DNA of 64,000 bases from an uncultured Actinomycetes bacterium (GTDB taxonomy: Bacteria; Actinomycetota; Thermoleophilia; Solirubrobacterales; 70-9), in the NCBI GenBank assembly GCA_963721215.1, contig CAVRIF010000001.1:31123-95122 (forward strand), written 5' to 3'. The notes beneath the pieces are model-generated. The model had not been told where the DNA came from. It worked only from the letters and a program-made list of their open reading frames with translations, and searched no databases. The position numbers and the translations under genes were made by a program. Below, in pieces: positions 5,455 through 57,916 of this stretch. Position 1 is the stretch's first letter, and every line of letters starts with the position of its first letter.

Positions 5455-6399
5455 ATGAAGAAGGAAGACAAGGCAGCCCTGGTCGACGAGATCGCCGATC
5501 GCCTCGGCGACGCGGAGGCGATCTTCGCCGTCGACTATCGAGGCATCACGGTCCCGCAAGCAGCCGAGCTGCGCGCCAAGCTGGCCGAGGCGGAGGCGAA
5601 CTTCCGCGTGGTCAAGAACCGGCTCGCGAAACGGGCAACGGAACGGGCCGGCACCGCCGAGCTCGACCCCCTGTTCGAGGGCCCGACCGCGCTCGCATTC
5701 GTCAAGGGCGACGCGGTGGCGGCGGCGAAGGCGATCTCGACCTTCGGTCGCCAGCACGACATCCTGGAATACAAGGGCGGGCTGATGGACGGGGCGCCGC
5801 TCGACCCCGAACAGTTCAGGACGATCGCCCGCCTGCCTGGCCTGGACGTACTCCACGGCCAGCTTGCCGGCGTCGTCGCCAGCCCGCTCACCGGCCTCGT
5901 CCGCGGCCTCTCGTCGATGCTCTCCGGCCTCGCCGTGGCCCTCGGCCAGATCCAAGAGCAGGGCCTGGTGGGCGGGGAAGAGCCGGCCCAGGAAGAGCCC
6001 GAGCCGACCGACGAGGCGGAGCCGGAGGAGAGCGCCCGGGAGAGCACCGAGGAGACGGCGGAGGAGAGCACCGAGGAGGAGCCCGAGGAGACTGAAAAGG
6101 AGGAGCCGGCTGGGGCTAGCGACGAAGTCGCGGAAGGCACGGCCGAACCTACCGCCCCCCCGGAGCCCGAACCCGCCGGAAACGGAGCCGAAGGCGAGGC
6201 TTCCGGCGGTGATGTCTCCGAGGAAGGCGGCGGAATTATTTCGGAGGCTTCCGGCGGTGATGTCTCCGAGGAAGGCGGCGGAGAGATGCCAGAGGAACCA
6301 GAGACTTCAGACGAAGCTGCAAACGATGAGAAGGAATCCCTCGAGGAATCCGAAACCGCTGGCGAGGATCCCGAGGGAGCAAGTGAGGAGAACGACTAA
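5455..6399 (+). CDS. rplJ: 50S ribosomal protein L10 with ~145-aa acidic C-terminal extension
   Basis: From ATG 5455 the N-terminus [17 protein letters not shown]...[16 protein letters not shown] matches L10. The track start GTG 5428 is an in-frame alternative. The canonical part ends near ...[12 protein letters not shown] (about nt 5965). The ORF continues without a stop to TAA 6397-6399, overlapping the rplL ATG (TAATG). Confidence 0.93.
6113..6209 (+). repeat. structured ~98-bp repeat, copy A (in frame inside rplJ)
   Basis: GGGCTAGCGACGAAGTCGCGG...GAACCTACCGCC...AACCCGCCGGAAACG..GCCGAAGGCGAGGCTTCCGGCGG, read as [32 protein letters not shown]. Confidence 0.9.
6196..6291 (+). repeat. 48-bp tandem duplication (2 units) starting in the 3' arm of copy A
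   Basis: GAGGCTTCCGGCGGTGATGTCTCCGAGGAAGGCGGCGGA occurs at 6196-6234 and again at 6244-6282. It encodes [13 protein letters not shown] twice. Confidence 0.9.
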
Positions 6400-6791
6400 T
6401 GGCAACAAGTGCAATGTCCACCGATGAATGGATCGAGGAGCTGAAGACGATCTCGGTGATCGAGCTCTCTGAGCGCATCAAGGCGCTGGAGGAGGAGTTC
6501 GGCGTCTCGGCGACCGCGATCGCGGCTGCCCCGGCGGCCGGGGCCCCGGCCGCGGGCGATGAGGCCGGCGAGGAGGAGTCGACCACCGTCGACGTCGTGC
6601 TGACCGCCCCCGGCGACAAGAAGATCCAGGTGATCAAGGCGGTTCGGGCCGCCACCGGGCTCGGCCTGAAGGAGGCCAAGGCCCTCGTCGACAGCGCCCC
6701 GAAGGCCGTCAAGGAGGGGCTCGAGCGCGACGAGGCCGAGAAGCTCAAGTCCGATCTCGAGGAGGCCGGAGGCGAGGTCGAGCTGAAGTAG
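6399..6791 (+). CDS. rplL: 50S ribosomal protein L7/L12
   Basis: [34 protein letters not shown]...EVELK C-terminal domain. It has an Ala/Pro hinge. Confidence 0.97.
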
Positions 6792-6828
6792 CCACGCCTG
6801 CCGACCCGCCAACTCGCACCTGCTAGGC

Positions 6829-6858
6829 TTGCGTGAGCGTGCGTAGTTATGGTATTTT
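6829..6858 (+). promoter_or_regulatory. possible sigma-70-type promoter upstream of rpoB
   Basis: TTGCGT (6829-6834), an 18-nt spacer, then TATTTT (6853-6858), in an otherwise GC-rich 160-nt rplL-rpoB spacer. Sequence pattern only. Confidence 0.3.
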
Positions 6859-6951
6859 GCGGGGTCGCGCGCCGTTGGCCCTGCTTGCTTCGAATCTCTC
6901 GCGCGATTCGTTCGATTCGTTCTGCCCCGACCATCCGAGGAGTCGCCTAGT

Positions 6952-20004: not shown

Positions 20005-20092
20005 TCCGGGGTTCGCCGGAGTGGCGAGCCGAGACCCGCAGCGTTGAGCAGACAGACTTCGAGAGAAACCCGCGAGCACCAAAAGGAGCGAG

Positions 20093-21280
<1,188 letters not shown>

Positions 21281-21286
21281 CGGCTC

Positions 21287-21313
21287 GGGGCCGGCTTGGC
21301 CGGCCCCTTTTTG
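21287..21313 (+). terminator. intrinsic terminator after tuf
   Basis: GGGGCCGGC-TTG-GCCGGCCCC followed by TTTTTG. Confidence 0.8.
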
Positions 21314-21318
21314 TTGAG

Positions 21319-21390
21319 CCCGCGGCGAGTCGCGGGAGAAGTGAAAGGACATACGACCGGGGCGGCGCCCCACACAGGGGCGGCGCCCCA
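21319..21390 (+). promoter_or_regulatory. structured S10-operon leader
   Basis: Hairpin CCCGCG-GCGAGT-CGCGGG (21319-21336). It also has two tandem copies of the self-complementary GGGGCGGCGCCCCA (21359-21372, 21377-21390) just upstream of rpsJ. Function inferred from position only. Confidence 0.35.
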
Positions 21391-21407
21391 ACTGTGCGAT
21401 AGGACAG

Positions 21408-21728: not shown

Positions 21729-21741
21729 GTAGCGGTGCTGG

Positions 21742-23108: not shown

Positions 23109-23110
23109 GC

Positions 23111-23407: not shown

Positions 23408-23427
23408 GAGCAGCAGGCAACTGATCG

Positions 23428-40653: not shown

Positions 40654-43481
<2,828 letters not shown>

Positions 43482-43482
43482 T

Positions 43483-43581
43483 CCGCCGGAAGCCTCGCCT
43501 GCGGCTGCGTTTCCGGCGGGCGAGGGTTCCGGCCTGACCCGGCAGGTCGATTCGCAACTACCGCGACTTCGTCGCTAGCCC
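43483..43581 (-). repeat. structured repeat, copy G (intergenic, inverted orientation)
   Basis: The reverse complement reads GGGCTAGCGACGAAGTCGCGGTAGTTGCGAATCGACCTGCCGGGTCAGGCCGGAACCCTCGCCCGCCGGAAACGCAGCCGCAGGCGAGGCTTCCGGCGG. It begins 1 nt after the ligA TAG. Confidence 0.9.
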
Positions 43582-44838: not shown

Positions 44839-44889
44839 CGCCGGCAGGGTAGCCGCTGCACCCGGACGCCGCCGCTGCCTGAATGCGGC

Positions 44890-46230
44890 ATGCCGCAGCC
44901 TGCCTCACCGGACGGCATAATGGGTGACTCCATGGGCAAGGTCGTCGAGCTCGAGACGCCCCGTACGGACTCGCGGGCGGCTCGGAGCAAGAGAAGTCGC
45001 CGGCAGCGATCAAAGACTGCGCTCGTGCTCGGCGGAGGGGGTTTCACCGGCGGCGTGTACGAAATCGGCGCCCTTCGGGCCCTCGACCTGCTGGCCGTCA
45101 ACCGTACGATCAACGAGTTCGACGTCTACGTGGGCACCAGCGCGGGGTCGTTTGTGGCCAGTATGGTGGCCAACGGGATCACGCCCGAGGAGATGATGCG
45201 GGTGCTGAACCACGAGCTGCCGTCGCCGTTGCGGGACATCTCGCTGGGCACCCTGCTGAAACCGAACTACAGCGGTTTCGTACGCAAGTCGCTCACCTTC
45301 CCGCTGCGGGTGGCGGGAGTGGCGAAGGAAGTGGCCAGCCATCTGAGCGAGCTCTCGGCAGTCGACGTCGTCACCGGTCTGGCGAGCGGCCTGCCGACGG
45401 GCATCTACAGCGGGCGCGGGATCGAGAGCTACGTCGCCGAGGTGCTGGCGGACCCGGATCGAAGCAACGACTTCCGGCTCCTCGACGCGGAGCTGTACCT
45501 GACCGCGACCGACCTCGACACGACAGAACGCGTCGTGATGGGCGAGGGCGATTGGGCTGACGTTCCGATCTCCACGGCGGTTGCGGCCTCCGGCGCCCTG
45601 CCGATGATCTACGAGCCCGTGGAGATCAACGGTCGCGAATTCATCGACGGCGGCATCCGCTCGACGACGAACGTCGATGTAGCGGTCGAGCATGGCGCCA
45701 AGTTCATCGTGGTCATCAACCCGCTGGTGCCTTACACGAACGACTTCTCCAAGCGGATCCCGACGGTTACCGGAACCCGGGCGCGCCGGGTGTCCGACAT
45801 GGGGTTCACAGCGATTGGCAATCAGGCCTTCCGGGTGCTCTCACACGAGCGCCTCCACGTCGCGGTCCAGCATTGGGAGCAGCGCTATCCGGGTGTCGAC
45901 ATCATCCTGATCGAGCCCGACCTGCACGACGAGCTGATGTTCGGCACCTCCATCCTCGATTACGGCGCCCGCCTCGAGATCGCCAAGCACGGCTTCGAGT
46001 CGGTGACCCTGAAGCTCGCCCGCGACTACGACCGCTACAAGGCGATCGCTGAGCGCCATGGCATCCAAATAGCGGCTCGCCGCGTCCGCCACGTGCTCGA
46101 CCAGGTCGAGCGCGAGCGCGAGAAGCAGTCAGCGTGGCGGCGCGTATTGGAGCAGACGACGGCGGTGCTGCTCAGGCAACAGAACTCCGAAGCCGCTGAG
46201 CCAGCCTCGGAGGCAGCCGAGCCGGACTAG
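44890..46230 (+). CDS. patatin-like phospholipase family protein
   Basis: LVLGGGGFTGGVYEIGALRAL oxyanion region, GTSAGS nucleophile elbow, DGGI catalytic Asp. Confidence 0.85.
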   Translation: MPQPASPDGIMGDSMGKVVELETPRTDSRAARSKRSRRQRSKTALVLGGGGFTGGVYEIGALRALDLLAVNRTINEFDVYVGTSAGSFVASMVANGITPEEMMRVLNHELPSPLRDISLGTLLKPNYSGFVRKSLTFPLRVAGVAKEVASHLSELSAVDVVTGLASGLPTGIYSGRGIESYVAEVLADPDRSNDFRLLDAELYLTATDLDTTERVVMGEGDWADVPISTAVAASGALPMIYEPVEINGREFIDGGIRSTTNVDVAVEHGAKFIVVINPLVPYTNDFSKRIPTVTGTRARRVSDMGFTAIGNQAFRVLSHERLHVAVQHWEQRYPGVDIILIEPDLHDELMFGTSILDYGARLEIAKHGFESVTLKLARDYDRYKAIAERHGIQIAARRVRHVLDQVEREREKQSAWRRVLEQTTAVLLRQQNSEAAEPASEAAEPD

Positions 46231-46255
46231 CCTCCCGCTGGCGGCGGGACAGCCG

Positions 46256-48067
46256 TCAGCTCGAGTAGAGAGACTGGATTTCGCCGGCGTACTTGTCGGC
46301 GACCACGTTGCGCTTCACCTTCAGCGTCGGAGTCAGCTCACCCTCCTGCTGGGAGAGATCGCGGGGCAGGATCTTGAACTTCTTCACCTGCTCGACGCGG
46401 GCGAACTTCTGGTTCGCCTTCTCGATGTGCTCCTCGATCGCTTGGCGGACCTCGGCGTTCGAGGCCATCGCCTCCGGATCCTCCGGCAGCCCGTGCTCTT
46501 TGGCGAAGGTCGCCGCCTCCTCGGGGTCGAGCGTGACCAGGGCGACGAGGTACGGCTGGCGGTCGCCGATCACCACGCACTGCGAGACCAGCGGATGTTG
46601 CTTCACCTCGGCCTCGATGTTCGCGGGGGTGATGTTCTTGCCCCCGGCGGTGATGATGATGTCCTTCTTGCGGCCGGTGATCTTGAGGAAGCCGTCGGCG
46701 TCGATCTCGCCGATGTCGCCGGTGTGGAGCCAGCCATCCACGAGCGTTTCGCGGGTCGCCTCGGGGTTCTTGTAGTAGCCCTGGAAGACGTTCGGCCCGC
46801 GCACCAGGATCTCGCCGTCGTCGGCGATCTTCACCTCGCAGCCGGGGAACGGCTTGCCGATCGTCCCGAACTTGAACTCGTCGGCCCTCGCGATCGTCGC
46901 CGCGGTTGAGGTCTCCGTCATCCCCCAGCCCTCGAGCACGAGCACGCCGGATGCGTCGAAGAAGCGGAGGATCTCCGGGTTGATCGGGGCGGCGCCGGAG
47001 ACCGCCTCGATGATCCGTCCCCCGAACAGATTGCGGATGTTCGACAGCACCAGGCGGTCCGCGATCTCGTACTGGATGCGAAGCGGGGGCCACGGGCTCT
47101 TGCCCTGGCGCTCGAGCTCGCGGACTCGGTGGCCCACGCCCACCGCCCAGTTGAAGATCGCCTTCTGCACGCCGCCCGCGCTCTCCGCCTTCGAGGTCGC
47201 GGTGGTGTAGATCTTCTCGAAGATCCGCGGCACGGAGGGGAAGTAGTGAGGTTTGACTTCGGCCAGGTTGGGGAGGATCTTCAGCGGGTCGCGGTCCCAG
47301 TAGGCGAGGACGCCGCCGACGTCGAAGCTGAGCAGCTGGATCAGGAGTGCGAACGAGTGGGCGAGAGGCAGGTAGAGATAGGTGATCCGACCGGCCTCGA
47401 GCACGCTCTGCTCCAGCGACATGTTGAGCATCGCGCGGTAGTTGCCGTGCGAGATCACGCAGCCCTTGGGCGGGCCGGTGGTGCCTGACGTGTAGATGAA
47501 CGTGCAAATGTCGTCTGGGACGACCGAGCGCCACCGCTCCTCCCACTCCGAGACCTCGTGCGAGGCGCCGCGCTGAGCGAGCTCGTCGGCCGAGATCGCG
47601 TCGTCGCTGGAGCCGGTCATCAGGATCACGTGCTCGAGCTTCGGGCAACGGTCGCGGACCTGCCGGATCTTGTCGAGCTGCTCGGAGTCCTCGACCACCA
47701 CAACCTTGGCGTCGGAGTTCTCGAGCACGTACTGGCATTCCTCGGGCGAGTTGGTCTGGTAGATCGGCACCACGATCGCGCCGGCGGTCAGCGCGGCGAA
47801 GTCGTGGTGGGTCCACTCCGGGCGGGTGTTCGCGAGGATCGACACCTTGTCGCCCTTCTGAACTCCGAGATCGATCAGGCCAAGCGCCAGGCTGCGAACC
47901 CGATCGCCGACCTCGGCAAAGCTCTGGGTGGCCCACTCGCCGGAGTCGTCGCGGTACATCACCGCGGCCTGGGAGCCGTACTTCTTCACGGCGGCCGGAA
48001 GGAGGTCCGCGATCGTCACCGAACCGGCGCCGGTCGCCGAACGGGACTCGACGGTCGCTGTCTCCAT
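46256..48067 (-). CDS. fadD: long-chain fatty-acid--CoA ligase (AMP-binding)
   Basis: IYTSGTTGPPKG AMP-binding motif, GWLHTGDIG, GKNITPANIE, typical FACS C-terminus. Confidence 0.9.
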   Translation of the reverse strand: METATVESRSATGAGSVTIADLLPAAVKKYGSQAAVMYRDDSGEWATQSFAEVGDRVRSLALGLIDLGVQKGDKVSILANTRPEWTHHDFAALTAGAIVVPIYQTNSPEECQYVLENSDAKVVVVEDSEQLDKIRQVRDRCPKLEHVILMTGSSDDAISADELAQRGASHEVSEWEERWRSVVPDDICTFIYTSGTTGPPKGCVISHGNYRAMLNMSLEQSVLEAGRITYLYLPLAHSFALLIQLLSFDVGGVLAYWDRDPLKILPNLAEVKPHYFPSVPRIFEKIYTTATSKAESAGGVQKAIFNWAVGVGHRVRELERQGKSPWPPLRIQYEIADRLVLSNIRNLFGGRIIEAVSGAAPINPEILRFFDASGVLVLEGWGMTETSTAATIARADEFKFGTIGKPFPGCEVKIADDGEILVRGPNVFQGYYKNPEATRETLVDGWLHTGDIGEIDADGFLKITGRKKDIIITAGGKNITPANIEAEVKQHPLVSQCVVIGDRQPYLVALVTLDPEEAATFAKEHGLPEDPEAMASNAEVRQAIEEHIEKANQKFARVEQVKKFKILPRDLSQQEGELTPTLKVKRNVVADKYAGEIQSLYSS

Positions 48068-48175
48068 TCGCTCTCCTCCTTCGTTTGGAGTTCTGAGATC
48101 GACCGAGCGCCTCGCGCCAAGACCGATCGAGCGGCTGATTCCGCTGCTTGTGAAGGCTATCTCAGCGAACCGGCG

Positions 48176-48358
48176 CTAGGCGGCGGCCCGGGGCTGTTTC
48201 GGTTGCTGCGCGAGCTGGCGCAGCGAGGAGAGGAAAAGGGTCTTGTCGATACGGCCGTTGAAGATTGGGACGCCCATCTCCATGCACTTAGAGATCACCT
48301 CGCGCCGCTTCATGTCGACTTCCTCAGCGAGCTCGGTGGGCGTCAAGTGGATGGCCAC
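48176..48358 (-). CDS. small helix-turn-helix DNA-binding protein (excisionase/MerR-like HTH)
   Basis: 60 aa from GTG 48358, preceded by a strong SD (GGGAGGAG, 8-nt spacer). LTPTELAEEVDMKRREVISKCMEMGVPIFNGRIDKTLF resembles HTH_17-type domains. Confidence 0.6.
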   Translation of the reverse strand: MAIHLTPTELAEEVDMKRREVISKCMEMGVPIFNGRIDKTLFLSSLRQLAQQPKQPRAAA

Positions 48359-48475
48359 GAATTGAACTCCTCCCGGTCGTTTGCCTATCTGATTCTTATC
48401 GCCCGAGGCGGATGTGTCAACGCTTTTTCCCCCAAATTGCGCCACATCAGGCGCGCCGGTCGAAGCGCATCTACG

Positions 48476-48769
48476 ATGTTTCGCACCGTGGTCGACGAGG
48501 CACAGTCGCTTTCGCCCCCCACCGAGCCGCTCGCCGGCGACGAGGGCTCGTTCCTGGAGTCGCTGATGGACACTGAGCTGTACTCGATCGGCGCCTTCTT
48601 CTGCGACGAGCATCCGGACCTGGTGGACGAGGTGGTGGCCCGCAGCGAGGCGATCGAGCGCAGCGGGCTGGAGGCCTACTCGCGGCAGAGCGGCGGGCCG
48701 ATCGAGGAGAGCTTCGAGACGCTCCTCACCGGCCTCGCGGTTCGCTACTACAAGGCGGTCGCCGGGTAG
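48476..48769 (+). CDS. hypothetical acidic protein
   Basis: 97 aa from ATG 48476, directly followed by the start of the next gene (TAGATG). No recognisable motif and no clear SD. Confidence 0.4.
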   Translation: MFRTVVDEAQSLSPPTEPLAGDEGSFLESLMDTELYSIGAFFCDEHPDLVDEVVARSEAIERSGLEAYSRQSGGPIEESFETLLTGLAVRYYKAVAG

Positions 48770-49459
48770 ATGCACAGGAGCCCATGGCTGCCGCGCCTGC
48801 TGCTGGGCGTCGGCGCCGTAGGCCTCCTCGCGGCGGTCGTGTCCCTCTCGATCGGCGAAGGTGGCCCCGAGAAGATCGCGATCAGCGGCGGCGAGCAAAC
48901 CCAGCAGCTGATCGCCGGGATTCCGCAGGACGGCCCCTATCTGGGCCCGAGCGACGCGCCGGTCACGATCACCGTCTTCAGCGACCTCCAGTGCTCGAGC
49001 TGCGACGACTACCAGCTCCACACGGTCGACCCGTTGATCGAGCAGTACGCTCGCAGCCGCGAGGCCAGGCTCGAGTTCCGCCACATCTCGCTCCAGGAGG
49101 CCGAGACGACGGAGGCCGCCTACGCCGCAACCGCAGCGGGGGAGCAGGACCGCCAGTGGCAGTACATCGACCTCCTGTTCCGCAACCAGGACGAGGCTCC
49201 CGCGAACATCGTCTCGGACGAGTTCCTCGAGGACATCGGTAACGCGATCCCGGACTTCGACCTCGATGCTTGGAAGCAGGCGCGCGACTCGTCCGAGGTA
49301 GCAGACCGGGTCGAGACCGACGCGGCGCTCGCCGCCGAGCTGGGCCTGCGGGTCGAGGGGCCGTCGGTGATGGTCAGCGGGCCCGGCGGCACGGAGGTGC
49401 TTCAGGACTCGCCGTCCAAAGAGCAGATAGACGCCGCCGTGTCGGCCGTCGGGGTCTAG
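48770..49459 (+). CDS. DsbA-like thioredoxin-fold protein (membrane-anchored/secreted)
   Basis: N-terminal hydrophobic anchor. PVTITVFSDLQCSSCDDY contains a CxxC active site in DsbA-family context. Confidence 0.75.
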   Translation: MHRSPWLPRLLLGVGAVGLLAAVVSLSIGEGGPEKIAISGGEQTQQLIAGIPQDGPYLGPSDAPVTITVFSDLQCSSCDDYQLHTVDPLIEQYARSREARLEFRHISLQEAETTEAAYAATAAGEQDRQWQYIDLLFRNQDEAPANIVSDEFLEDIGNAIPDFDLDAWKQARDSSEVADRVETDAALAAELGLRVEGPSVMVSGPGGTEVLQDSPSKEQIDAAVSAVGV

Positions 49460-49489
49460 TCAGGGCGCCTTTGGCAGAATGAATCGCCT

Positions 49490-49563
49490 CGGGGCGTGGC
49501 GCAGCCTGGTAGCGCGCACCGTTCGGGTCGGTGAGGTCGCCGGTTCAAATCCGGCCGCCCCGA
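49490..49563 (+). tRNA. tRNA-Pro (anticodon CGG)
   Basis: Hand-folded. Acceptor CGGGGCG/CGCCCCG, D arm GCGC-AGCCTGGTA-GCGC, anticodon stem CACCG/CGGTG with loop TTCGGGT (CGG), T arm GCCGG-TTCAAAT-CCGGC, discriminator A. Confidence 0.9.
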
Positions 49564-49639
49564 TACCTCACTGGGCGTTCTGGAGCAATCGATACCAGCC
49601 CAGGGGGCGCGATAGCCTCCCAGCCATGGAGGCCGCCCG

Positions 49640-50065
49640 GTGATCAGCGAGCGAGCGATGCGCGCCGTGCTGATCGTGCTGGGCGCCGTTCAGGCCGCCT
49701 CGGGCGCCCTCGCGCTGGTCGCGCCAGGCACCTTCTTCGACGAGATCGGCCGCTACGGGGTCGAGAACCAGCACTACGTCGGCGACGTGGGGGCCTTCGT
49801 GCTCGCCTTCGGGGCAGCGCTCCTGGTCGCCGCCTGGCATCCGTCGTGGCGGGTGCCGGTGCTGGCCCTGGGGGCGCTCTGGTCCGGGCTTCACGTGATC
49901 AACCACGTGTTCGACGTCGGCGAGGCGCGAAGCGACGCACGGGGGGCCTTCGATGCGGTCTACCTCGGCATCGCCGGGCTGCTCTATGTCTACCTGGCCT
50001 GGGCGGCGGCCAGGCTCCAAGCGCCAGGGGCGGCGAGCCCAGCCCGGGAGGAGGAGACCTCATGA
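49640..50065 (+). CDS. hypothetical 4-TM membrane protein
   Basis: 141 aa with four hydrophobic segments. The stop overlaps the next start (ATGA). Confidence 0.55.
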   Translation: MISERAMRAVLIVLGAVQAASGALALVAPGTFFDEIGRYGVENQHYVGDVGAFVLAFGAALLVAAWHPSWRVPVLALGALWSGLHVINHVFDVGEARSDARGAFDAVYLGIAGLLYVYLAWAAARLQAPGAASPAREEETS

Positions 50066-50994
50066 AGGTCTTCGTCGCCGGTGCCAGCGGAGTGATTGGG
50101 GGGCCGCTGGTGCGCCAGCTCGTTGACGCGGGACACGAGGTCACCGGGGCGACGAGCAAGCCGGAGAACACCGCCCGGCTCGAGGCTGCCGGCGCGACGG
50201 CGATCGTCTGCGATGCGCTCGATCCCGAGGCGGTGCACGCTGCGGTCCGGGAGGCGGCGCCGGAGGTCGTGATCAGCCAGCTCACCCGGCTTCCGCGCGA
50301 GTACAACCCGCGGAAGATCGACTACGGGCCAACCAACCGGGCGCGTGCCGAGGGCGGGCACAACATGATCGAGGCGGCACGTGCCGCCGGAGTCAGGCGC
50401 TTCATCACCCAGAGCGTCGCCTTTCTCTACGCGCCAGAGGGCGGGATGATCAAAGACGAGGAGGCGCGGCCGTGGGCGGACGCGCCAGACCCCTTCCGCA
50501 GCGGCGCCGACTCGACGCTGGAGCACGAGCGAGAAGCGACGCACACAGCCGGGCTCGAGGGCCTGGTGCTGCGCTACGGCCAGTTCTACGGGCCGGGCAC
50601 CTATTACGCCTCCGACGGGAACATCGCCGAGCAGGTGCGCCGCCGTCGCTTCCCGATCGTGGGCCGCGGCGAGGGGATGTTCTCCTTCATCCACGTTGAA
50701 GACGCCGCCTCGGCCACCCTTGCCTCGCTGGAGCGGGGCACGCCCGGCGTCTACAACGTCGTTGACGACGAGCCTGCCCTGCTGCGCGAGTGGCTGCCGG
50801 TTTACGCGGATGTACTGGGCGCGAAACGACCCCGTCGGGTGCCGACGTTCCTGGCACGGCTGGCGGCGGGCCCGTTCGCGGTGGCCTTCGCGACTGAGCT
50901 CCGCGGCGCCTCGAACGCCAAGGCCAAGCGCGAGCTCGGCTGGGAGCCCCGCTATGCGAGCTGGCGCCAGGGGTTTCGAGAGGCGCTTGGATAG
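50062..50994 (+). CDS. NAD(P)-dependent epimerase/dehydratase family protein
   Basis: From ATG 50062: MKVFVAGASGVIGGPLVRQLVDAGHEV Rossmann motif. Trimmed from a longer frame run. Confidence 0.8.
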   Translation: MKVFVAGASGVIGGPLVRQLVDAGHEVTGATSKPENTARLEAAGATAIVCDALDPEAVHAAVREAAPEVVISQLTRLPREYNPRKIDYGPTNRARAEGGHNMIEAARAAGVRRFITQSVAFLYAPEGGMIKDEEARPWADAPDPFRSGADSTLEHEREATHTAGLEGLVLRYGQFYGPGTYYASDGNIAEQVRRRRFPIVGRGEGMFSFIHVEDAASATLASLERGTPGVYNVVDDEPALLREWLPVYADVLGAKRPRRVPTFLARLAAGPFAVAFATELRGASNAKAKRELGWEPRYASWRQGFREALG

Positions 50995-51029
50995 GTTTCA
51001 GGCTCACAGCGAGCTAAGGAGAAGTGCAG

Positions 51030-51626
<597 letters not shown>

Positions 51627-51639
51627 AGATCAGGCCGGG

Positions 51640-53286
51640 TCAGCCTGCGGGCGTCGCGGTCCGCTCATCGGGCCGGGCAGCTCCGTCGCGCTCCGGCACG
51701 AAGGACATCGCCCGTTCGGCGAGGGCGGTGATCGTAAGGCTCGGGTTGACGCCCGGATTGGCTGGGACTGCGGCTCCGTCGCAGACCAGCAGGTTGGCGT
51801 AGCCGAAGACCCGGTTGCGGGCGTCCACGACGCCGGTGGAGGGATCTGTGCCAATCACGGCGCCGCCGAGGATGTGGGCGGTGGTGGGGATGTTCAGCAT
51901 CGACTCGGTGAGCGCACTCTGCGGAATGCCCCCTGTGTGCTCCGCGAACCAGCGGGCGGCCCGCCCGGCCGCGGGGATGTAGGTGGGGTTGGGCCGCCTC
52001 GGATCCTGCTCCGTCTGGAGGCGCACGCGGCGCCCCCGCCGCCTTGGGTTCGCACGCAGGCGCATCGCGGTGTCCAGCGACTGCATTACCAGCAGGATCA
52101 CGGTCCGCTGCGACCACTTGCCGGGCCACAGCAGCCGGACGGTTTGGAGAGGGTGGCGAATCATCGCGGCCAGCCACTTCAGCGGCCGCGTGATCCGGGT
52201 CCCGGGTCCGGTCATGGTGGTGAACAGGCCGCTCATCGCGTCGCCGGCCCGCCCGTACGTGACCACCTCGATATGCGTGTCAGGATCGGGGTAGATGCTC
52301 GACGTGATGGCGACCGAGCGGGCGAAGTCGCGGCTGTCGTCGGGAGCGGTAACGGCCTGAATCGACTCCGAATTGGTCCGTACCAGGTACCCGAGCCGCG
52401 TCGAGAGGCGGGGGAGAGCCCCGCTGTGCTTGCAGTCGGCCAGCAGCTGGTTCGTGCCCAGCGCCCCCGCGGCGATCACAACGCCGCGGGCCGTCAGGGT
52501 GCGCTCGCGGCGTCGCAGCCACGCGCCTGGACGCACGGTGGTGACCGCGTAGCCGTCGGAGCCATCGGCCGCTTCCAGGGGGCGAACCTCGATCGCCTGC
52601 CGCTCGGGCAGGACCTCGGCGCCCAGCCGCTCCGCGAACCAGAGATAGTTCTTGACAAGGGTGTTCTTGGCGCCGTGCCGGCAGCCGACCATGCAGCTCC
52701 CACAGCGGATGCAGCCGGATCGCGGCGGCCCCTCGCCGCCGAAATAGGGGTCGGGGACCTGCTTGCCCGGCTCGCCGAAGAAGATCCCCACTCGCGTCGG
52801 CTTGAAGGTCTCGGCAACGCCGATCTGGGCGGCGTACGCGCGCAGCAGCTCGTCGGCCGGGGTCATGCCCTGGTACTCGGTGACGCCGAGCATGCGCTCG
52901 GCGGTGTCGTAGTAAGGCCGCAGCTCGTCCTCCCAGTCGGCAAGGCCGTCCCACTGGGGATCGGTGAAGAACGCGGGGCGCGCGCGGTAGAGGGTGTTCG
53001 CGTAGCCAAGGCTGCCACCCCCGACCCCGTTCCCGGAAACGATGAACACGTCCTTGAAGAAAGTCAGGCGGAAGATGCCCCGCAGGCCCAGGCGCGGCAA
53101 CCAGAAGTAGCGGCGCAGGTTCCAGGCCGAGTTGGCGAAATCGTCGTCGGCGAACCGGCTGCCGCACTCGACCACGCCCACCCGGTAGCCCCTTTCGGCG
53201 AGCCGCAGCGCCGAGACGCTGCCCCCGAAGCCCGAGCCGATCACGAGCCAGTCATAGTCGTGGCCTTGGGCCGGAGCGCCGGTCAT
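51640..53286 (-). CDS. GMC-family FAD-dependent oxidoreductase (cholesterol-oxidase-like)
   Basis: From ATG 53286: ...DYDWLVIGSGFGGSVSALRLAERGYRVGVVECG FAD-binding fold. C-terminal GMC region (HILGGAVIG...). Confidence 0.8.
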   Translation of the reverse strand: MTGAPAQGHDYDWLVIGSGFGGSVSALRLAERGYRVGVVECGSRFADDDFANSAWNLRRYFWLPRLGLRGIFRLTFFKDVFIVSGNGVGGGSLGYANTLYRARPAFFTDPQWDGLADWEDELRPYYDTAERMLGVTEYQGMTPADELLRAYAAQIGVAETFKPTRVGIFFGEPGKQVPDPYFGGEGPPRSGCIRCGSCMVGCRHGAKNTLVKNYLWFAERLGAEVLPERQAIEVRPLEAADGSDGYAVTTVRPGAWLRRRERTLTARGVVIAAGALGTNQLLADCKHSGALPRLSTRLGYLVRTNSESIQAVTAPDDSRDFARSVAITSSIYPDPDTHIEVVTYGRAGDAMSGLFTTMTGPGTRITRPLKWLAAMIRHPLQTVRLLWPGKWSQRTVILLVMQSLDTAMRLRANPRRRGRRVRLQTEQDPRRPNPTYIPAAGRAARWFAEHTGGIPQSALTESMLNIPTTAHILGGAVIGTDPSTGVVDARNRVFGYANLLVCDGAAVPANPGVNPSLTITALAERAMSFVPERDGAARPDERTATPAG

Positions 53287-53410
53287 GGCCCGCAGGATAG
53301 GCACCCGGGGATCACGGCTGGCCACCGACGCGGGCTGTCCGCTGGCGCGGGGGCATAGGATCCCGCCAGCCCGCCACGGCGGCATCGCGAGCACGAGGAG
53401 AGGAGAAGAG

Positions 53411-53827
53411 TTGGCCTATTTCAACGACGCCCAGGAGGTCTATGACACGCTCGGCAAGCTGTTCGTTGACCTCGCGGAGGACGAGGAGCTGGCGCCGAAG
53501 TTCCGCAAGGCGAACACGATCGTCCGCTACGAGTACCGCGAGCCCGAGTCCACGATCACCGTGCGCCTCCAGGAGGGCCAGCCGGGCGACGTCGACTTCG
53601 GCAAGTCCGAGATGGAGCCCGAGGTGGTGATGTCTATGGAGGCCGACACCGCGCACCGGTTCTGGCTTGGCAAGGTGAACGTCACCGTGGCGCTCGCGCG
53701 AGGCCAGATCAAGGCCAAGGGCCCGGTGGCCAAGATTCTCAAGCTGGTGCCGTTGACGAAGCCGGTCTTCCCCCGCTACAAGGCCCAACTCGAGTCCCAG
53801 GGCCGCTCAGATCTGATCGAGGCTTGA
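53411..53827 (+). CDS. SCP2 sterol-binding-domain protein
   Basis: From TTG 53411, preceded by AGGAGAAGAG. ...MEADTAHRFWLGKVNVTVALARGQIKAKGPVAKILKLVPL is typical of SCP-2 domain proteins. Confidence 0.7.
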   Translation: MAYFNDAQEVYDTLGKLFVDLAEDEELAPKFRKANTIVRYEYREPESTITVRLQEGQPGDVDFGKSEMEPEVVMSMEADTAHRFWLGKVNVTVALARGQIKAKGPVAKILKLVPLTKPVFPRYKAQLESQGRSDLIEA

Positions 53828-55020
53828 CCTTCAAGGACTTCTACCAGTTCGCCTCGCCCACGCGGATCGTCTCGGGACGTGAGCTGATTCCGAGCGCGGG
53901 CTTCGAGTTCGCAAAGGAGGGCGCCGAGCGCGTGCTGCTCGTCACCGACCGGGTGATCCGGGGCACCGGGTTGGTGGAGAAGGTCGAAAACGGGATCGCC
54001 GACGGCGGACTCGAGGTCGCGGGCGTCTTCGACGACGTCCCGCAGGACTCCGATACCGCGGTTGTGGTGAGGTGTGCTGAGCAGGCGAAGGATGAGGGCG
54101 CCGACAGCTTCCTGGCCGTCGGTGGAGGATCGGTGATCGACACCACCAAGGCCGCCGACGTGATCTTCAGCCACGGCGGCACGATTCCGGAGTGGGAGGG
54201 AGTCTTCGGGCTGCCGCGCGAACGCGACGGGATGGGAAGGCCGCTGCCGTTGGCGCCGCTGGGAGTCATTCCCACCACCGCGGGCACCGGCTCGGAGGCG
54301 AGCCCCGTGGCCGTGATCAAGGACTCCGAACGGGGCATCAAGTTCGTAGTCCTCGACTTCCCGCTGGCCCCGGACCTGGCGATCCTGGACCCCGAGTCCA
54401 CGGCGACCCTGCCGGCGCCGATCGCGGCGGCGACCGGAATGGACGCGCTCACGCACGCGATCGAGGGTGTGACCTCGACCGAGTGGAGCCCGCATGGAGA
54501 CGCCTACGCGCTTCACGCGATCCGGCTGATCCGCGACAACCTGGAGCGCGCCGTCGTCGACACCTCGGATGAGGAGGCCCGCGGCAACATGCTGGTTGCC
54601 GCGAACCTGGCGATCGCCCCCACCGGGTTCGGCGCGACCGGCGTCACCCACTCGATGTCGCACCCGTGCGGGGCCCGCTACGGCGTTCCACACGGGGTTG
54701 CGAACGCGATCAACCTGCCGCCGGTGATCGAGTTCAACGCCGTGGCCAGTGAAGAGGTGGCGGACCAGTTCCGCACTGCCGCCGAGCTTCTCGGGGTGGA
54801 TGCCCGTGGCGAGGGCGAGCAGGTTGGCCGGGCGCTCGCCGATCATGTCCGGGACCTGAGAACGAGCCTCGGCCTACCCGGCCGCCTGTCGGAGGTCGGT
54901 GTCCCGGAGCAGGGCATACCCCAGCTCGCCGAGGATGCGATGGGCGAGGGGTCGACGCTGGTCAATCCGCGCGAGCCGAGCGCTGAGGACTTCGTCGAGC
55001 TGTTCCATCGAGCGCTGTGA
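53824..55020 (+). CDS. iron-containing alcohol dehydrogenase
   Basis: AVGGGSVIDTTKA, GTGSE, and His-rich metal-site blocks (ALTHAIE, HSMSHPCG). Confidence 0.88.
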   Translation: MTFKDFYQFASPTRIVSGRELIPSAGFEFAKEGAERVLLVTDRVIRGTGLVEKVENGIADGGLEVAGVFDDVPQDSDTAVVVRCAEQAKDEGADSFLAVGGGSVIDTTKAADVIFSHGGTIPEWEGVFGLPRERDGMGRPLPLAPLGVIPTTAGTGSEASPVAVIKDSERGIKFVVLDFPLAPDLAILDPESTATLPAPIAAATGMDALTHAIEGVTSTEWSPHGDAYALHAIRLIRDNLERAVVDTSDEEARGNMLVAANLAIAPTGFGATGVTHSMSHPCGARYGVPHGVANAINLPPVIEFNAVASEEVADQFRTAAELLGVDARGEGEQVGRALADHVRDLRTSLGLPGRLSEVGVPEQGIPQLAEDAMGEGSTLVNPREPSAEDFVELFHRAL

Positions 55021-55050
55021 TGGCTGCCACCAGCGGGCTCGCCGGCTGAC

Positions 55051-55731
55051 GTGAGCGCCAGCGACGAAGCCCGGGCCTGGGCCGAGGCCGTGCAGGCGGT
55101 CGCGAGGGATCGCGACCTCGTCTACGAGCCGGTTGGTGGCATCAACCCGGTCGGGGGGCCGGTGGCGCTCTGTCCTGGCGGGACCAACCGGGTCACGGGG
55201 CAGCTGGCGGAGGGCTTCTGGGGCGCATCCTGCGACGCCGATGAGCGCGAGGAGGGAGGGCTGTTCTCGAAGGCCGTGCTTCCCGGTGCAGTGCTGGCCA
55301 AGTCGCACGTTCCCGACCTGGCGAAGGTGATGCCGCCCTTCAACGTCGAGTCGATCGAGCGCCGTCCGGACGAGCTGGTGATGCAACGCGCCTCTCGCCG
55401 GAAGGTCGAGTTCGAGAGCCTGGACTTCAACCGGCGCTTCCTGGCGACCGTGCCGAGCGAGTACGACCCGGTCGCGTTGCGGGAGGTCTTCAGCCCCGCG
55501 TTCCTGGAGTGGGTGACGACGATCGACAACGAGATCGACTTCGGCGTCTCCGAGCAGCAGCTGTGGTTCCTTTGGCGACTCGGTGAGCGCAGCCGCGACC
55601 AGCTCGACGCCGCGCTCGACAACGGCGGCGCGCTTTTCAAGCAAGTCTGCAAGGAGGTGGAGGAGTCGGGGGTCCACACCTATCCGGCGGGTCCCTGGCA
55701 CGCCGGGCTGGAGCCCTTCCCTAAGACATAA
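55051..55731 (+). CDS. hypothetical protein
   Basis: 226-aa ORF with GC3-rich codon pattern. No motif recognised. Confidence 0.5.
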   Translation: MSASDEARAWAEAVQAVARDRDLVYEPVGGINPVGGPVALCPGGTNRVTGQLAEGFWGASCDADEREEGGLFSKAVLPGAVLAKSHVPDLAKVMPPFNVESIERRPDELVMQRASRRKVEFESLDFNRRFLATVPSEYDPVALREVFSPAFLEWVTTIDNEIDFGVSEQQLWFLWRLGERSRDQLDAALDNGGALFKQVCKEVEESGVHTYPAGPWHAGLEPFPKT

Positions 55732-55733
55732 CT

Positions 55734-55831
55734 CCGCCGGAAGCCTCGGCCTTCGGCCTACGTTTCCGGCGGGTTTGACGCGGGCGGGGCGGCAGGTTCA
55801 CTCGCGTGACCCGCGACTTCGTCGCTAGCCC
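55734..55831 (-). repeat. structured repeat, copy H (intergenic, inverted orientation)
   Basis: The reverse complement reads GGGCTAGCGACGAAGTCGCGGGTCACGCGAGTGAACCTGCCGCCCCGCCCGCGTCAAACCCGCCGGAAACGTAGGCCGAAGGCCGAGGCTTCCGGCGG. It begins 2 nt after the TAA of ORF 55051-55731. Confidence 0.9.
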
Positions 55832-55863
55832 GAGCGGCCCCACCTTGGTTCTCGGCTCTGTCC

Positions 55864-56829
55864 CTAGTTGGAACGCGACTTGAGCTCGCGGCGGGCTGTG
55901 CGGTAGAAGCGGAGGGACCTGCGCATGGTGCTTCGGTACCTGCCCAGCACGCCCTTGTTCGGGAGCTCCAAGCCTCCCACGAGCTTATGCGGCGCGAGCG
56001 CCCAGCCCGCGCCCCTTCGTATGAGGTCGCCGCGGACCTGGAAGTTCTCGCGCCAGTTGAAGTCGGCGTCGTGGCTGTGCGCCGTTAGGCAGGCGAGGCC
56101 CTCGGCCAAAGGCAGGCCTGCCGGCTGGGTATCGAGGAGGATCTGGCGGGAGCCGGCGTCGAGGCTCACCGGGACGCGCACGGCGAGCGGGAAGCCATCA
56201 GGGGCGACCAAGGCGAGCACGGCAGTCGCATAGCGCCGACCCAACTGCTCGATTCGCTCGTCCCATGCCAGGGCCCCGCCGCTGGGGGGCTCGTGCGCCT
56301 CGAGCGGCTCCTCACTGTGGCCCGAGCGGACCTCTTCCATGTGCGAGCCATGCATCTGTGGCGGCTTCGTGGGCTCTCCCGCCGGCCACACGAACACGCG
56401 CTCGGGGCGAACCTTGATGTAGATGCGGTTGACGTACCACGCGAACGCGCCGTGCAGGATGCGCGGCACCCGCACCCCCCTCGCGCTTCCCAGCTTGACT
56501 GCCGACTCACGCTCGTAGCGTTCGAGGTTCGCCGCTAGATCGCGGTCGTCAACCTTGGCGGTGCCCTGGACGAGCACCTGGATGCCGCTCTCGATCCCGG
56601 AGCCGGTCGGGTCGGAGAACAGGAGCGCTACATGGGGGTTGCGGCGGGCATCGTCGGCCTTCTTCGGGTAGCCCAGCCCGGTGGTGGTGTCGATAGTTTG
56701 GGCTCCGGGCGAGTAGTACGGCGTCACCGGCCAAACGATCGGCTGCTGTCGGGCGTCGATGGTGGTGAACTCGCAGGTGACGAAGCGCTCGAAGGCGTCG
56801 CGGACCTCCTGTGGCAGGGTGGCGGTCAT
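55864..56829 (-). CDS. pyridoxamine 5'-phosphate oxidase-like (split-barrel flavin-binding) two-domain protein
   Basis: From ATG 56829: MTATLPQEVRDAFERFVTCEFTTIDARQQPIVWPVTPYY...NPHVALLFSD. The track ORF is trimmed because its 5' part overlaps the NUDIX gene. Confidence 0.6.
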   Translation of the reverse strand: MTATLPQEVRDAFERFVTCEFTTIDARQQPIVWPVTPYYSPGAQTIDTTTGLGYPKKADDARRNPHVALLFSDPTGSGIESGIQVLVQGTAKVDDRDLAANLERYERESAVKLGSARGVRVPRILHGAFAWYVNRIYIKVRPERVFVWPAGEPTKPPQMHGSHMEEVRSGHSEEPLEAHEPPSGGALAWDERIEQLGRRYATAVLALVAPDGFPLAVRVPVSLDAGSRQILLDTQPAGLPLAEGLACLTAHSHDADFNWRENFQVRGDLIRRGAGWALAPHKLVGGLELPNKGVLGRYRSTMRRSLRFYRTARRELKSRSN

Positions 56830-56882
56830 AGGAGCGAAACATAGCCCGCCCGTTCGCCCGGTCGGCTCTCGCGTCCACAGGA

Positions 56883-57512
56883 TCAGTACCCGGGCTCGCC
56901 GGGCAGGACCACGCGTCGCCCCTCTCCCTCGCCGACGACGCGCGGCAGAATCGGTTCGATCCGGCGCCCGCGTGCGGCGGCCAGTACCTCCTCGGCGCTC
57001 GAGTTGGGGAGCAGCGCCTCGAGGTGCTTGATGGTCGGGAAGACCAACGACAGCTCGCCGGCCGCGTGGCGGTCGAGCGCCTCGCGAGGCGAGATCCAGG
57101 CGGCCTCGGTGGTCTCGGCTCCGTCGGGGCGTGGCGGCGAGTGGGGTGGCGCGAGCGTGACATAGAAGCGGGTGTCGAAGCGAACCGGCACGATTTCGGG
57201 AGTGATCCATCGCGACCAGGGGAGCAGCTCGGCGTCGGCGGCCAGCTCGATTCCGGCCTCCTCGCGGAGCTCCCGCACCGCGCAGGCCCGGTGCGCGAGC
57301 TCCTCGCCGTCGGTCGCGCTGCCCGCTTCGACCTCGGGCGCCACGGACTCGTCGGCCTCCACCACGCCGCCCGGGAACACCCAGACGCCGGGCATGAAGG
57401 TCGCCTCGAGGCTGCGCCGCACGAGCAGGAGCTCGACCCCGTGTTGGCGGTGCTTGCCGCCCCGGCGCAGCAGGATCAGCGAGGCGGCGGGGCGGGGGGC
57501 TGCCGGGACCAT
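56883..57512 (-). CDS. NUDIX hydrolase
   Basis: Nudix box GGVVEADES...AHRACAVRELREEAGIEL. Confidence 0.8.
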   Translation of the reverse strand: MVPAAPRPAASLILLRRGGKHRQHGVELLLVRRSLEATFMPGVWVFPGGVVEADESVAPEVEAGSATDGEELAHRACAVRELREEAGIELAADAELLPWSRWITPEIVPVRFDTRFYVTLAPPHSPPRPDGAETTEAAWISPREALDRHAAGELSLVFPTIKHLEALLPNSSAEEVLAAARGRRIEPILPRVVGEGEGRRVVLPGEPGY

Positions 57513-57582
57513 CTCGCCTCAACACTAGTGGTGATTTCCGGAAGTACGGCGCCGCCCACGGGTTTGGGTAAGCTGGCGCGCG

Positions 57583-57768
57583 ATGCCCACCGAAACCCAG
57601 ACTGTTCAGCTCTGGATCTGCACGTCCTGCGGCTTCATCTACGACCCGGAGGAGGGCGATCCTGACGGCGGCATCCCGCCGGGCACCCCCTTCGAGCAGA
57701 TCCCAGACGACTGGTTCTGCCCAGTTTGCGGCGCCCGCAAGGCGGACTTCGAGCCTTACGAGGAGTAG
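57583..57768 (+). CDS. rubredoxin
   Basis: [47 protein letters not shown], with two CxxCG knuckles. Confidence 0.93.
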
Positions 57769-57817
57769 TAGCGGGCTGGCGCCGCGGTCGCGGTAGTTGC
57801 GGAGGTGGGGCTGGCCC

Positions 57818-57916
57818 GGGCTAGGGACAAGGTCCCGGTAGTGGCGTGTGGACCTGCCGGGTGAGGCTGGGACCCTAGCCCGGCGGAAACGTAGGCGAAG
57901 CCGAGGCTTCCGCCGG
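57818..57916 (+). repeat. structured repeat, copy I (intergenic)
   Basis: GGGCTAGGGACAAGGTCCCGGTAGTGGCGTGTGGACCTGCCGGGTGAGGCTGGGACCCTAGCCCGGCGGAAACGTAGGCGAAGCCGAGGCTTCCGCCGG. A fragment GTCGCGGTAGTTGCG, matching copy G, lies just upstream (57787-57801). Confidence 0.85.

Follow-up and report, generated by a model that had tools for sequence, protein, structure and literature searches.

The Rickettsia palindromic elements (RPEs) are hairpin repeats of about 100-150 bp that occur both between genes and, in frame, within genes, where they encode a conserved peptide (Ogata et al. 2000, 2002, as summarised in PMC10969869). Their insertions sit in linkers or surface regions compatible with the fold of the host protein, and no transposase is known for them (PMC10969869). 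Here, we describe a repeat of about 105-110 nt in a 64,000-nt stretch of DNA from an uncultured Solirubrobacterales bacterium (contig CAVRIF010000001.1, positions 31,123 to 95,122; hereafter the window), where it lies in intergenic spacers and, in frame, inside rplJ, rpsC, rpsQ and rpsE, which encode the ribosomal proteins L10, S3, S17 and S5. The family to which it belongs is previously undescribed. It is probably an RPE/REP-like, non-autonomous and hairpin-dependent repeat family of a Solirubrobacterales lineage, gained and lost near stop codons, of which internal coding copies survive only in the frame that gives a harmless, disordered acidic peptide.

For 25 years, RPEs have been the extreme case of selfish DNA inside coding genes, usually framed around reduced intracellular genomes. 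This phenomenon is now found, with a similar share of intragenic copies, in abundant free-living, high-GC soil Actinomycetota, and its hosts include the most conserved genes known (S3, S5, S17, L10, S9, L19, NusA, Der and NuoG). Like the RPEs, the element is an interspersed hairpin repeat found between genes and inside unrelated housekeeping open reading frames (ORFs), in one phase and at fold-compatible sites. Unlike the RPEs, whose host is an AT-rich, reduced intracellular alphaproteobacterium, it belongs to a free-living, soil-dwelling actinobacterial lineage of 69% GC; its peptide is acidic, Pro/Ala-rich and apparently disordered, its intergenic copies are strongly tied to stop codons, some of which the element itself supplies, and several ribosomal proteins are among its hosts. 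Sequence homology to RPE-1 to RPE-10 is implausible given the phylum and the base composition, and the two are likened here by features, not by sequence. An earlier note on this DNA had proposed an RPE-like repeat with intergenic and in-frame copies, a proposal that a wider scan, empty sites and codon usage now support. Its particular interest lies in the hosts, which are core ribosomal and transcription/translation proteins, in a lineage that is free-living and of high GC, and in an association with stop codons that is unusually clear.

The REP/BIME repeats and the REPINs, whose RAYT enzymes are IS200/IS605-like Y1 transposases, share other features with the element. They are extragenic hairpins that cluster at the 3' ends of genes and in convergent spacers, they lack both terminal inverted repeats and target-site duplication, they carry a short conserved motif (here CTAG) just 5' of the palindrome, and their stems vary in a compensatory manner between subfamilies. 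However, a REP is a palindrome of 20-40 nt or an inverted doublet, whereas the unit described here measures about 110 nt with two unlike hairpin domains, and a quarter of its copies are intragenic and apparently translated. The mycobacterial interspersed repetitive units (MIRUs) are reportedly actinobacterial short repeats at the intercistronic junctions of operons, with small ORFs that overlap the flanking stop and start codons. A mini-ORF between rpsE and rpmD (MSEASGGVV*) and insertions at ATGA and TGATG junctions recall them in arrangement, not in sequence. MIRUs are mainly tandem arrays of the variable-number type (VNTR) and not two-hairpin structured units, and we know of no in-frame insertions of them in essential genes.

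Modular build and occasional intragenic in-frame fusions are also features of the pneumococcal BOX, enterobacterial ERIC and Coxiella QMITE1 repeats (PMC10969869); the modules of the element, namely a 5' module, a middle part and a 3' arm, are found alone or re-duplicated. Those repeats differ from it by their terminal inverted repeats or other defining boxes and by a much lower intragenic fraction, and the element has neither the terminal inverted repeats nor the fixed-length target duplication of a classical miniature inverted-repeat transposable element (MITE). In a 2024 review of prokaryotic MITEs, in-frame fusions are listed for RPE, ERIC, BOX, QMITE1 and Anabaena MITEs, RPE being the most extreme (PMC10969869). 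A term search of this review gave no occurrence of "Actinobacteria" or "ribosomal protein", and we found no description in the literature of such a repeat for Solirubrobacterales or Thermoleophilia.

Anatomy, covariation and spread of the repeat

Nine near-full copies (A to I), one half copy (D') and three solo 3'-arm units in the window belong to one repeat. The nine copies and D' had been listed in the earlier note, and all were present at, or a few bases from, the positions it gave. Seven copies (A-F and D') lie within rplJ, rpsC, rpsQ and rpsE, all in sense orientation and, as translation confirmed, in a single reading frame of the element, while G, H and I are intergenic, each with convergent flanking genes. 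The 20-mer GGCTAGSGACRARGTCSCGG from the 5' hairpin matched the window eight times at no more than two mismatches, compared with 0.02 matches expected from shuffles. A repeat finder reported the coding copies as direct repeats (6108-6226, 25804-25922, 25918-26036, 26863-26981, 31153-31271 and 31243-31361) and tied 43482-43585, 55749-55835 and 57814-57917 to them in direct or inverted orientation (families D1-D5, inverted pairs I1-I13). A covariance model built from the nine copies and run across the whole window, with filters off, recovered exactly these nine (E 6e-18 to 5e-8) and gave a weak match to D' (E 0.24); beyond the nine, the best E value was 0.007, and the weaker matches were mostly reverse-strand echoes of the same copies.

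The 5' domain of the element consists of GGGCT, a hairpin (GCGAC-GAA-GTCGC) and AGCCC, and the 3' domain of a long interrupted hairpin, CCGCCGGAA..GSC-GAAG-GSC..TTCCGGCGG, followed by AGTTATTC(C). With its ends set from an inverted pair and from empty sites, the element extends about 5 nt further on the 3' side (AGT[T/G]ATTC[C]) than the limit first proposed. RNAalifold, applied to the nine window copies, gave a GGGCU...AGCCC domain enclosing GCGAC-GAA-GUCGC, plus the long interrupted 3' hairpin. Five base pairs are compensated among these copies alone; examples of the changes are GCGAC/GUCGC to GGGAC/GUCCC in E and I, GCC/GGC to GGC/GCC in four of the nine, and a swap of CCGCCGG/CCGGCGG in I.

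An exact-pattern scan with the 5' hairpin 20-mer, in contigs of one genome per species, returned at least 111 loci from about 32 assemblies, each taken as an 8-kb block around the match. At least two of them (Streptomyces and Hyphomonadaceae) were chance matches to the 20-mer with no full element. In the 925 kb formed by the loci listed and the window, nhmmer found at least 153 matches and the covariance model at least 101, so that the further copies for which a profile scan had been suggested do exist, in about 32 species-level genomes. Among the matches listed, nearly all loci came from metagenome-assembled genomes (MAGs) labelled Solirubrobacterales, Actinomycetes or Actinomycetota, Solirubrobacterales being an order of Thermoleophilia within the Actinomycetota, and the closest genome, MFD00962.bin.2.105, showed 94-95% nucleotide identity to the window. 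European Nucleotide Archive (ENA) contigs 99.4-99.8% identical to the window were reached through EF-Tu and L16 look-ups, but they carry indel errors and are therefore unfit as clean strain-level comparisons; an exact look-up of the S3 sequence of the window gave no record. Searches with the peptide gave one match for the 47-aa consensus in an index of 5.8 billion proteins and none at E <= 0.001 for the 40-aa peptide of copy D among 1.84 billion representatives, both queries being too short and of too low complexity for databases of this size, and host diversity was therefore taken from the DNA scan.

The stems are maintained by covariation across the family. In an alignment of 101 copies to the model, 94% of the cells were paired, compared with 83% in shuffles, and 227 cells had double changes, compared with 71. 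The covariation score of 0.236 was reached by none of 500 shuffles (0.066) and fell to 0.01-0.04 with slid partners. Because an alignment to the model is fitted to its own structure, the count was redone on 104 near-full copies that MAFFT had aligned blind to structure. In this alignment, 92% were paired in register, compared with 30-55% when slid, and six pairs showed robust swaps (CG81/GC23; CG69/GC11/AT6; GC53/AT31/CG11; AT46/CG31; GC75/CG22; GC59/CG36). Between the two alignments, double changes were present at 6-13 pairs. Among stem mismatches, G-U (37) and A-C (45) were about equally frequent, with no strand asymmetry, and the fold thus looks to act at the DNA level or independently of the strand.

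No terminal inverted repeats were found, the 5' end (CCGGGCTAGCGAC) being unrelated to the reverse complement of the 3' end (GGAATAACTCCGCC). Flanking repeats of 2-5 nt, examined at all boundary offsets around 113 copies, gave no consistent peak indicative of a target duplication. With neither of the two features, the element agrees better with a REP/RAYT-like or recombinational route than with a classical MITE. On its 5' side, the element has CTAG and a 13-nt palindrome; the unit is composite and often intragenic, and gene 3' ends are enriched for it.

Variants of the element were also observed. A longer subfamily of about 135-140 nt (loci L002, L009, L015, L053, L086 and L103) has an insert in the 3' hairpin (..GGAATCCGAGCAAGCTCGGATCACCGGTCGCC..CTCCCTCC..), and in a second subfamily the co-varying arms GACA/TGTC replace GGAA/TTCC, with the peptide EDVGG for EASGG. 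The 3' arm (GAGGCTTCCGGCGGAGTGGTTCC, read as EASGGVVP) is often re-duplicated downstream of full copies in the loci, a pattern suggestive of slippage, or of partial re-insertion, at the 3' hairpin.

Reading frame, stop codons and host genes

Classed by position, 30 of 133 near-full copies lie within an ORF in sense frame +0, four in +1 and none in +2; eight overlap an ORF in antisense, half of them in tiny, doubtful ORFs, and about 91 are intergenic. The last group comprises 28 copies between co-directional genes in sense, 21 between co-directional genes in antisense, 25 in convergent and nine in divergent spacers, the remainder having no gene call on one side. About a quarter of the copies are thus coding, and roughly two-thirds of the near-full copies are intergenic, in both orientations.

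The frames differ in what they would do to a host gene. Frame +2 meets an immediate TAG, in GGGCTAG, which is exactly where the upstream gene terminates in 12 copies. Frame +1 meets a TAG just past hairpin 1 (..GTCGCGGTAG) in most intergenic copies, and three genes use it. Both of these sense frames reach a TAG of the element within 25 nt, and only +0 is open throughout. Frame +0 accounts for 30 of the 42 ORF-overlapping copies (binomial p about 1e-12 to 1e-14), although copies in the other two sense frames end at the element's TAGs and are scored as intergenic, so that being in frame at a gene 3' end is partly a matter of definition. The real evidence that frame +0 is read and selected comes from the internal insertions, with 40 codons or more upstream and 100 or more downstream, all 12 of which are in this frame. 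The +1 coding copies (GLATKSRK...) were all found on MFD-named MAG contigs, which we take to be long-read assemblies. They were treated as unreliable, and +1 was set aside as a genuine coding phase, because indels occur in a near-identical ENA contig whose naming is of the same contig_N type and because one of the relatives (P0032) shows an implausible S3-L16 fusion.

According to Pfam, the internal and tail copies fall between domains or in tails. Inter-domain copies separate the lipoyl domains of an OdhA-like E2/E1 fusion, the CofG half of FbiC from its CofH half, the two GTPase domains of Der, and UvrD-N from UvrD-C in a UvrD-like helicase; in NuoG, the copy precedes the C-terminal molybdopterin-binding domain. 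Those in S9 and NuoEF sit in N-terminal extensions, and those in L19, NusA and ABC ATPases in C-terminal tails. The peptide encoded in frame +0 is made up of Ala (24%), Glu (16%), Pro (13%) and Gly (12%), with almost no hydrophobic or aromatic residues.

An origin as a protein-coding module was considered, i.e., an acidic low-complexity tail cassette spread by recombination or gene conversion, the intergenic copies being decayed or displaced coding fragments. In its favour, seven of ten window copies are coding in a single frame, the identical junction of the B/C and E/F dimers suggests copying between ribosomal-protein genes, and the tandem 3'-arm units act like peptide repeats (EASGGVVP). 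However, the proportion of intergenic copies and their two orientations argue against it, as does the structure: the stems are Watson-Crick in 92% of the pair cells of coding copies and 93% of those of intergenic copies, the intergenic copies fold better, and covariation keeps base pairs, not codons. Protein-level conservation, which the earlier note had held to speak against a repeat, was not apparent. In coding copies, the GC content at third codon positions (GC3) of the element was 0.67, far under the 0.88 of the host genes and equal to that of the same phase in intergenic copies (0.70), and coding copies were at least as close to the consensus as intergenic ones (median 67.5 and 61.2 bits, respectively). 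Foreign codon usage, equal stem retention and equal divergence thus indicate that coding copies are conserved as nucleic acid and not optimised as protein. Covariation and GC3 together largely refute the protein-module origin, which we regard as very improbable.

The intergenic copies are closely associated with gene 3' ends. Convergent spacers are enriched 2.6-fold for the element (21/79 compared with 101/832, p = 9e-4), and in 27 of 46 copies the stop of the convergent gene lies at -2 to +8 nt of the model end, abutting the AGTTATTC tail or within it; the reverse complement of this tail contains TAA. Such a distribution is what would be expected of a functional cis-acting signal that selection keeps at gene ends, be it a bidirectional terminator, a stabiliser of mRNA 3' ends, an insulator or a site of protein binding, with coding copies as tolerated by-products. 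Functions of this kind have been proposed for REP/BIME and SPRITE-type repeats. Besides the enrichment and the adjoining stop codons, it would account for stems kept by covariation, for a fold that works on either strand, as a bidirectional hairpin would (G-U and A-C mismatches being about equal), and for the AGTTATTCC that follows the 3' hairpin in sense, fairly T-rich for a genome of 69% GC.

Other observations are at odds with it. A consensus terminator scan of 43000-59000 flagged none of copies G, H and I, and compared with an intrinsic terminator the element has an interrupted loop and a tail with fewer than 5 T in 8. No Rfam family matched the element, only two tRNAs reached the gathering score in the window, and nothing was found at E <= 1 in 55600-58000. 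The 28 sense and 21 antisense copies flanked by co-directional genes, the copies at tightly coupled junctions (rplO/secY and rpsE/rpmD), where termination would harm, the quarter of the copies within essential ORFs, and the close relatives that are element-free at the same gene ends with no replacement all argue against such a role. A cis-acting signal is not exclusive of an RPE/REP-like repeat and is conceivable for intergenic copies, but as the main explanation of the family it seems doubtful.

Gain, loss and orientation between relatives

Comparison of orthologous regions, which had been suggested in order to see whether the element is a discrete insertion, showed that it is: close relatives have empty sites, and S3 proteins whose cores are 94-97% identical carry zero, one or two copies. 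Gains and losses have occurred between genomes that are 90-96% identical. Copy G lies antisense after ligA, which ends in ..KLVE*. At the same site of a 95%-identical relative (L032, 1311-1457), the copy is in sense with an identical left junction (CTGGTC|), and ligA ends in ..KLVPG* on the element's TAG. At another site, the 136-nt variant carried by locus L103 (4340-4475) is missing from L086 and from L108, whose flanks are 96 and 92% identical. The unoccupied sequence reads ..CCCTGG|TTAGGCC.., and the filled one has ..CCCTGG, then CTCGGGCTAG...CCGGTTGATTC, then AGGCC..., which places the insertion within a stop codon, the new stop using the last base of the element. Locus L010 (5167-5264) has the element in the opposite orientation at this site, the junction being resolved less finely than to the base. 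The opposite orientations at these two orthologous sites may reflect independent insertions at a hot spot or inversion in situ; other relatives are empty at the second.

Insertions were also found in coupled junctions. A copy lies in an ATGA stop/start overlap in L080, L103 and L108, with ATGA on both sides, and the overlap is intact in L010. In L076, a copy lies between rplO and secY with TGATG restored, and none is present there in the window and in L034. As to target repeats, ATGA flanks one insertion site on either side, and a second site shows no flanking repeat. Deletion derivatives also distinguish close relatives whose flanks are 97% identical: of the full copy seen in L053, L011 keeps only the 33-nt 5' module, and of that seen in L077, L021 keeps only the 3' arm. 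With dozens of species, empty and filled sites, and orientation flips, the family offers a tractable comparative system for asking how such repeats move, why they are sited at stop codons, and how proteins gain disordered tails and linkers.

These results show that copies land preferentially at or near stop codons and stop/start junctions, in either orientation, and suggest that they may be moved by a trans-acting enzyme recognising DNA hairpins; in a genome of 69% GC, stop-codon sites that contain AT may be favoured. After a sense insertion read in one of the TAG-bearing frames, the gene would simply end at the element. In the third sense frame, the element is open and would add an Ala/Glu/Pro/Gly-rich peptide that has no hydrophobic core. 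With two frames stopped and the third open, selection would keep internal copies only in that frame and orientation, in linkers and terminal tails where the peptide is presumably neutral. The already disordered tails of L10, S3, S5 and S17 would be permissive landing sites, lengthened with each copy.

Several points weigh against this interpretation. In the 8-kb blocks around the matches, we saw no arrangement of a 5' module, an ORF and a 3' module, and identified no transposase or autonomous partner, so that the word mobile rests on the polymorphism of presence/absence and orientation, which gene conversion or recombination could equally yield. Some orthologous copies are old (e.g., that of rplJ, present in three genomes); not every copy is therefore recent, and some may have gained a function. 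Every locus was chosen for the 5' hairpin 20-mer, which makes the sample a biased one, and the gene calls in the loci came from a self-trained dicodon caller and not from validated annotation. Many of the relatives are long-read MAGs with indel errors that blur frame calls. Measured against shuffles, single-sequence folding was of modest stability (z between -0.4 and -2.0 in coding copies, and between -1.9 and -3.7 in intergenic ones), and the case for structure therefore rests on covariation. Finally, translation of the tails is deduced from open frames and translational coupling.

A more adventurous possibility is a stop-codon-seeking mobile cassette, aimed at rare AT-containing sites (stops and stop/start overlaps), for which every outcome of insertion would be viable. 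Its stops in two sense frames and one antisense frame would be built in, with one sense frame kept fully open and encoding a disordered acidic peptide. Such a cassette would systematically remodel C-termini, linkers and operon junctions, and might have been co-opted for gene-end hairpins and for acidic tails on ribosomal proteins and core machinery. We consider this rather unlikely.

Copies and ribosomal host proteins in the window

The assignment of the four hosts, first made from the sequence alone, was borne out by Pfam, and the frames proved open up to and through all seven coding copies, as had been claimed, before ending in coupled junctions. The rplJ gene (5428-6399, + strand) encodes 323 aa, with the L10 core at residues 10-106, and its stop is coupled to rplL (TAATG). 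The rpsC gene (24929-26047, +) encodes an S3 of 372 aa; its junction with rplP is TGATG (stop 26045-47, ATG 26047-49) and not ATGA as first read. The rpsQ gene (26675-27418, +) encodes 247 aa, with the S17 core at residues 174-241, and its start is coupled to rpmC (TGATG). The rpsE gene (30569-31372, +) encodes an S5 of 267 aa when counted from the first in-frame TTG, and the true start may be an ATG five codons downstream.

Copy A (6111-6217, +; covariance model 6111-6212, E 2.9e-16; read through in translation) is a full element in the C-terminal tail of L10, with a counterpart at the orthologous position of rplJ in L046 and L110, one copy in each. The same tail contains a tandem duplication (6196-6291, +; 48-nt unit, family D8, 88% identity), built of two 3'-arm variants (GAGGCTTCCGGCGG.. 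and GAGGAAGGCGGCGG..) that give the same 13-residue peptide twice; the matches to the 3'-arm pattern start at 6196 and 6244. In the C-terminal tail of S3, the full copy B (25807-25913, +; E 6e-18; confirmed by translation) is joined to copy C (25921-26037, +; covariance model 25921-26022, E 5e-16), after which an extra degenerate 3'-arm unit occupies 26021-26037 (pattern match at 26021). Copies C and F have no first arm of hairpin 1, and the pairs B/C and E/F are joined through a common junction, GAGCAGCCGGCGGATGATGAAGTCGCGG.

The N-terminal extension of S17 holds copy D' (26734-26798, +), a degenerate 5' half with 72-74% identity over 43-66 nt and the 20-mer GGCTAGSGACRARGTCSCGG with two mismatches, and copy D (26866-26973, +), a full internal insertion detected by the covariance model (E 1.8e-16), translation and Pfam. 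The first element bases of copy D (GGGCTAG) are at 26868, and not at 26877 as originally placed. Among S17 orthologues, that of L101 has two copies and that of L076 one, and L111 retains no more than a remnant. In the tail of S5, copy E (31156-31255, +; E 5e-8; nhmmer 31157-31255; also supported by translation) has a compensated GGGAC/GTCCC in hairpin 1 and a 3' arm of the GAGCAGCCGGCGG type, and is joined to copy F (31246-31353, +; E 5e-16); S5 orthologues of L111 and L101 have one copy each. Between rpsE and rpmD, a solo 3'-arm unit (31372-31401, +; pattern match 31378-31394, 0 mismatches) forms the nine-codon mini-ORF mentioned above, with TGATG coupling at either end. It is missing from the orthologue in the closest relative (locus L007) as a clean 26-nt indel. 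By pattern search, the three solo 3'-arm units are at 6244, 26021 and 31378.

The ribosomal-protein extensions had been put at 90-170 aa and attributed to the element. These predicted extensions are only partly made of it: one copy would add about 33 aa to the host protein, and S3 tails are long in its absence too. Homologues with S3 cores 94-97% identical to that of the window have tails of 46-190 aa with no element peptide (e.g., P0037-P0043), with one (many) or with two (P0002, P0003 and P0025). The element-free tails imply that a Pro/Ala-rich tail pre-dates the element and that the latter is an insert whose presence varies. An AlphaFold model of S3 has no secondary structure from residue 210 onward (pLDDT, the per-residue confidence, 40-50), which hints that the tail may be disordered, in a model that is poor overall (pLDDT 55, and low even in part of the core). 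In all S3 proteins of the clade (window 25560-25800; P0037-P0121), a Pro/Ala/Arg-rich C-terminal tail of 45-190 aa was observed, even in element-free proteins. The basic N-terminal extension of S17 (about 90 aa) is, like the S3 tail, lineage-specific and independent of the repeat.

These tails might be artefacts of assembly or annotation, with mis-joined repeats or collapsed reads and true ribosomal-protein genes that end upstream. A near-identical long-read contig (L113; ENA ERZ25039591 contig_73375), 99.4% identical to window 20054-32464, is indeed frameshifted in the tails, as are other MFD-named MAG contigs, and some gene callers truncate S3, S5 and S17, with S3 and S17 cut short in L113. 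However, the 1-3 nt indels of this contig (window coordinates 22398, 24546, 25756, 25909, 25931, 26970, 29607, 29618 and 30207) fall in repeats and in ordinary ribosomal-protein genes alike, so that the frameshifts look like sequencing errors. The element is also present at the same ribosomal-protein positions in at least six independent assemblies, the frame is intact in L076 (JBDTSW, with contig names of short-read style), and all four ORFs of the window are open and end in coupled stop/start overlaps. An artefact is thus hardly credible.

The three intergenic copies lie at stop codons. Copy G (43480-43583, - strand; E 4e-15) separates ligA (stop 43479-81) from a convergent PBP4-like ORF (43558-44838, -; Pfam); its 3' tail overlaps the last codons and the stop of ligA, and its 5' part provides the stop of the opposite gene, which ends in PGLATKSR* on the frame +1 TAG. 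Copy H (55731-55833, -; E 1.6e-13), also between convergent genes, adjoins with its 3' end the TAA stop of ORF 55051-55731. Copy I (57816-57924, +; E 8e-15; fold z = -2.7) lies between a rubredoxin gene and a convergent DUF4349 gene (Pfam), directly adjoins the TAG stop (57925-27) of the latter, and has compensated variants in both hairpin 1 and the 3' stem.

Repeats of this kind have consequences for annotation. Because of the copies, genes are called truncated or fused where assemblies are error-prone, ribosomal-protein tails will be mis-annotated in long-read MAGs of the clade, and alignments of ribosomal-protein markers used in phylogenomics will hold non-orthologous inserts. In the PBP4-like ORF next to copy G, the Pfam match (Peptidase_S13) is limited to residues 48-176, and the dicodon model favours another frame in the 3' part (43575-43925). 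This ORF may be a frameshifted gene or a pseudogene; its last codons lie within copy G either way. In the same region, ARAGORN reported a permuted tmRNA (tmRNA*, 43370-43986, -) with a tag containing the element peptide, where Rfam finds no tmRNA, and the call is almost certainly false and due to copy G.

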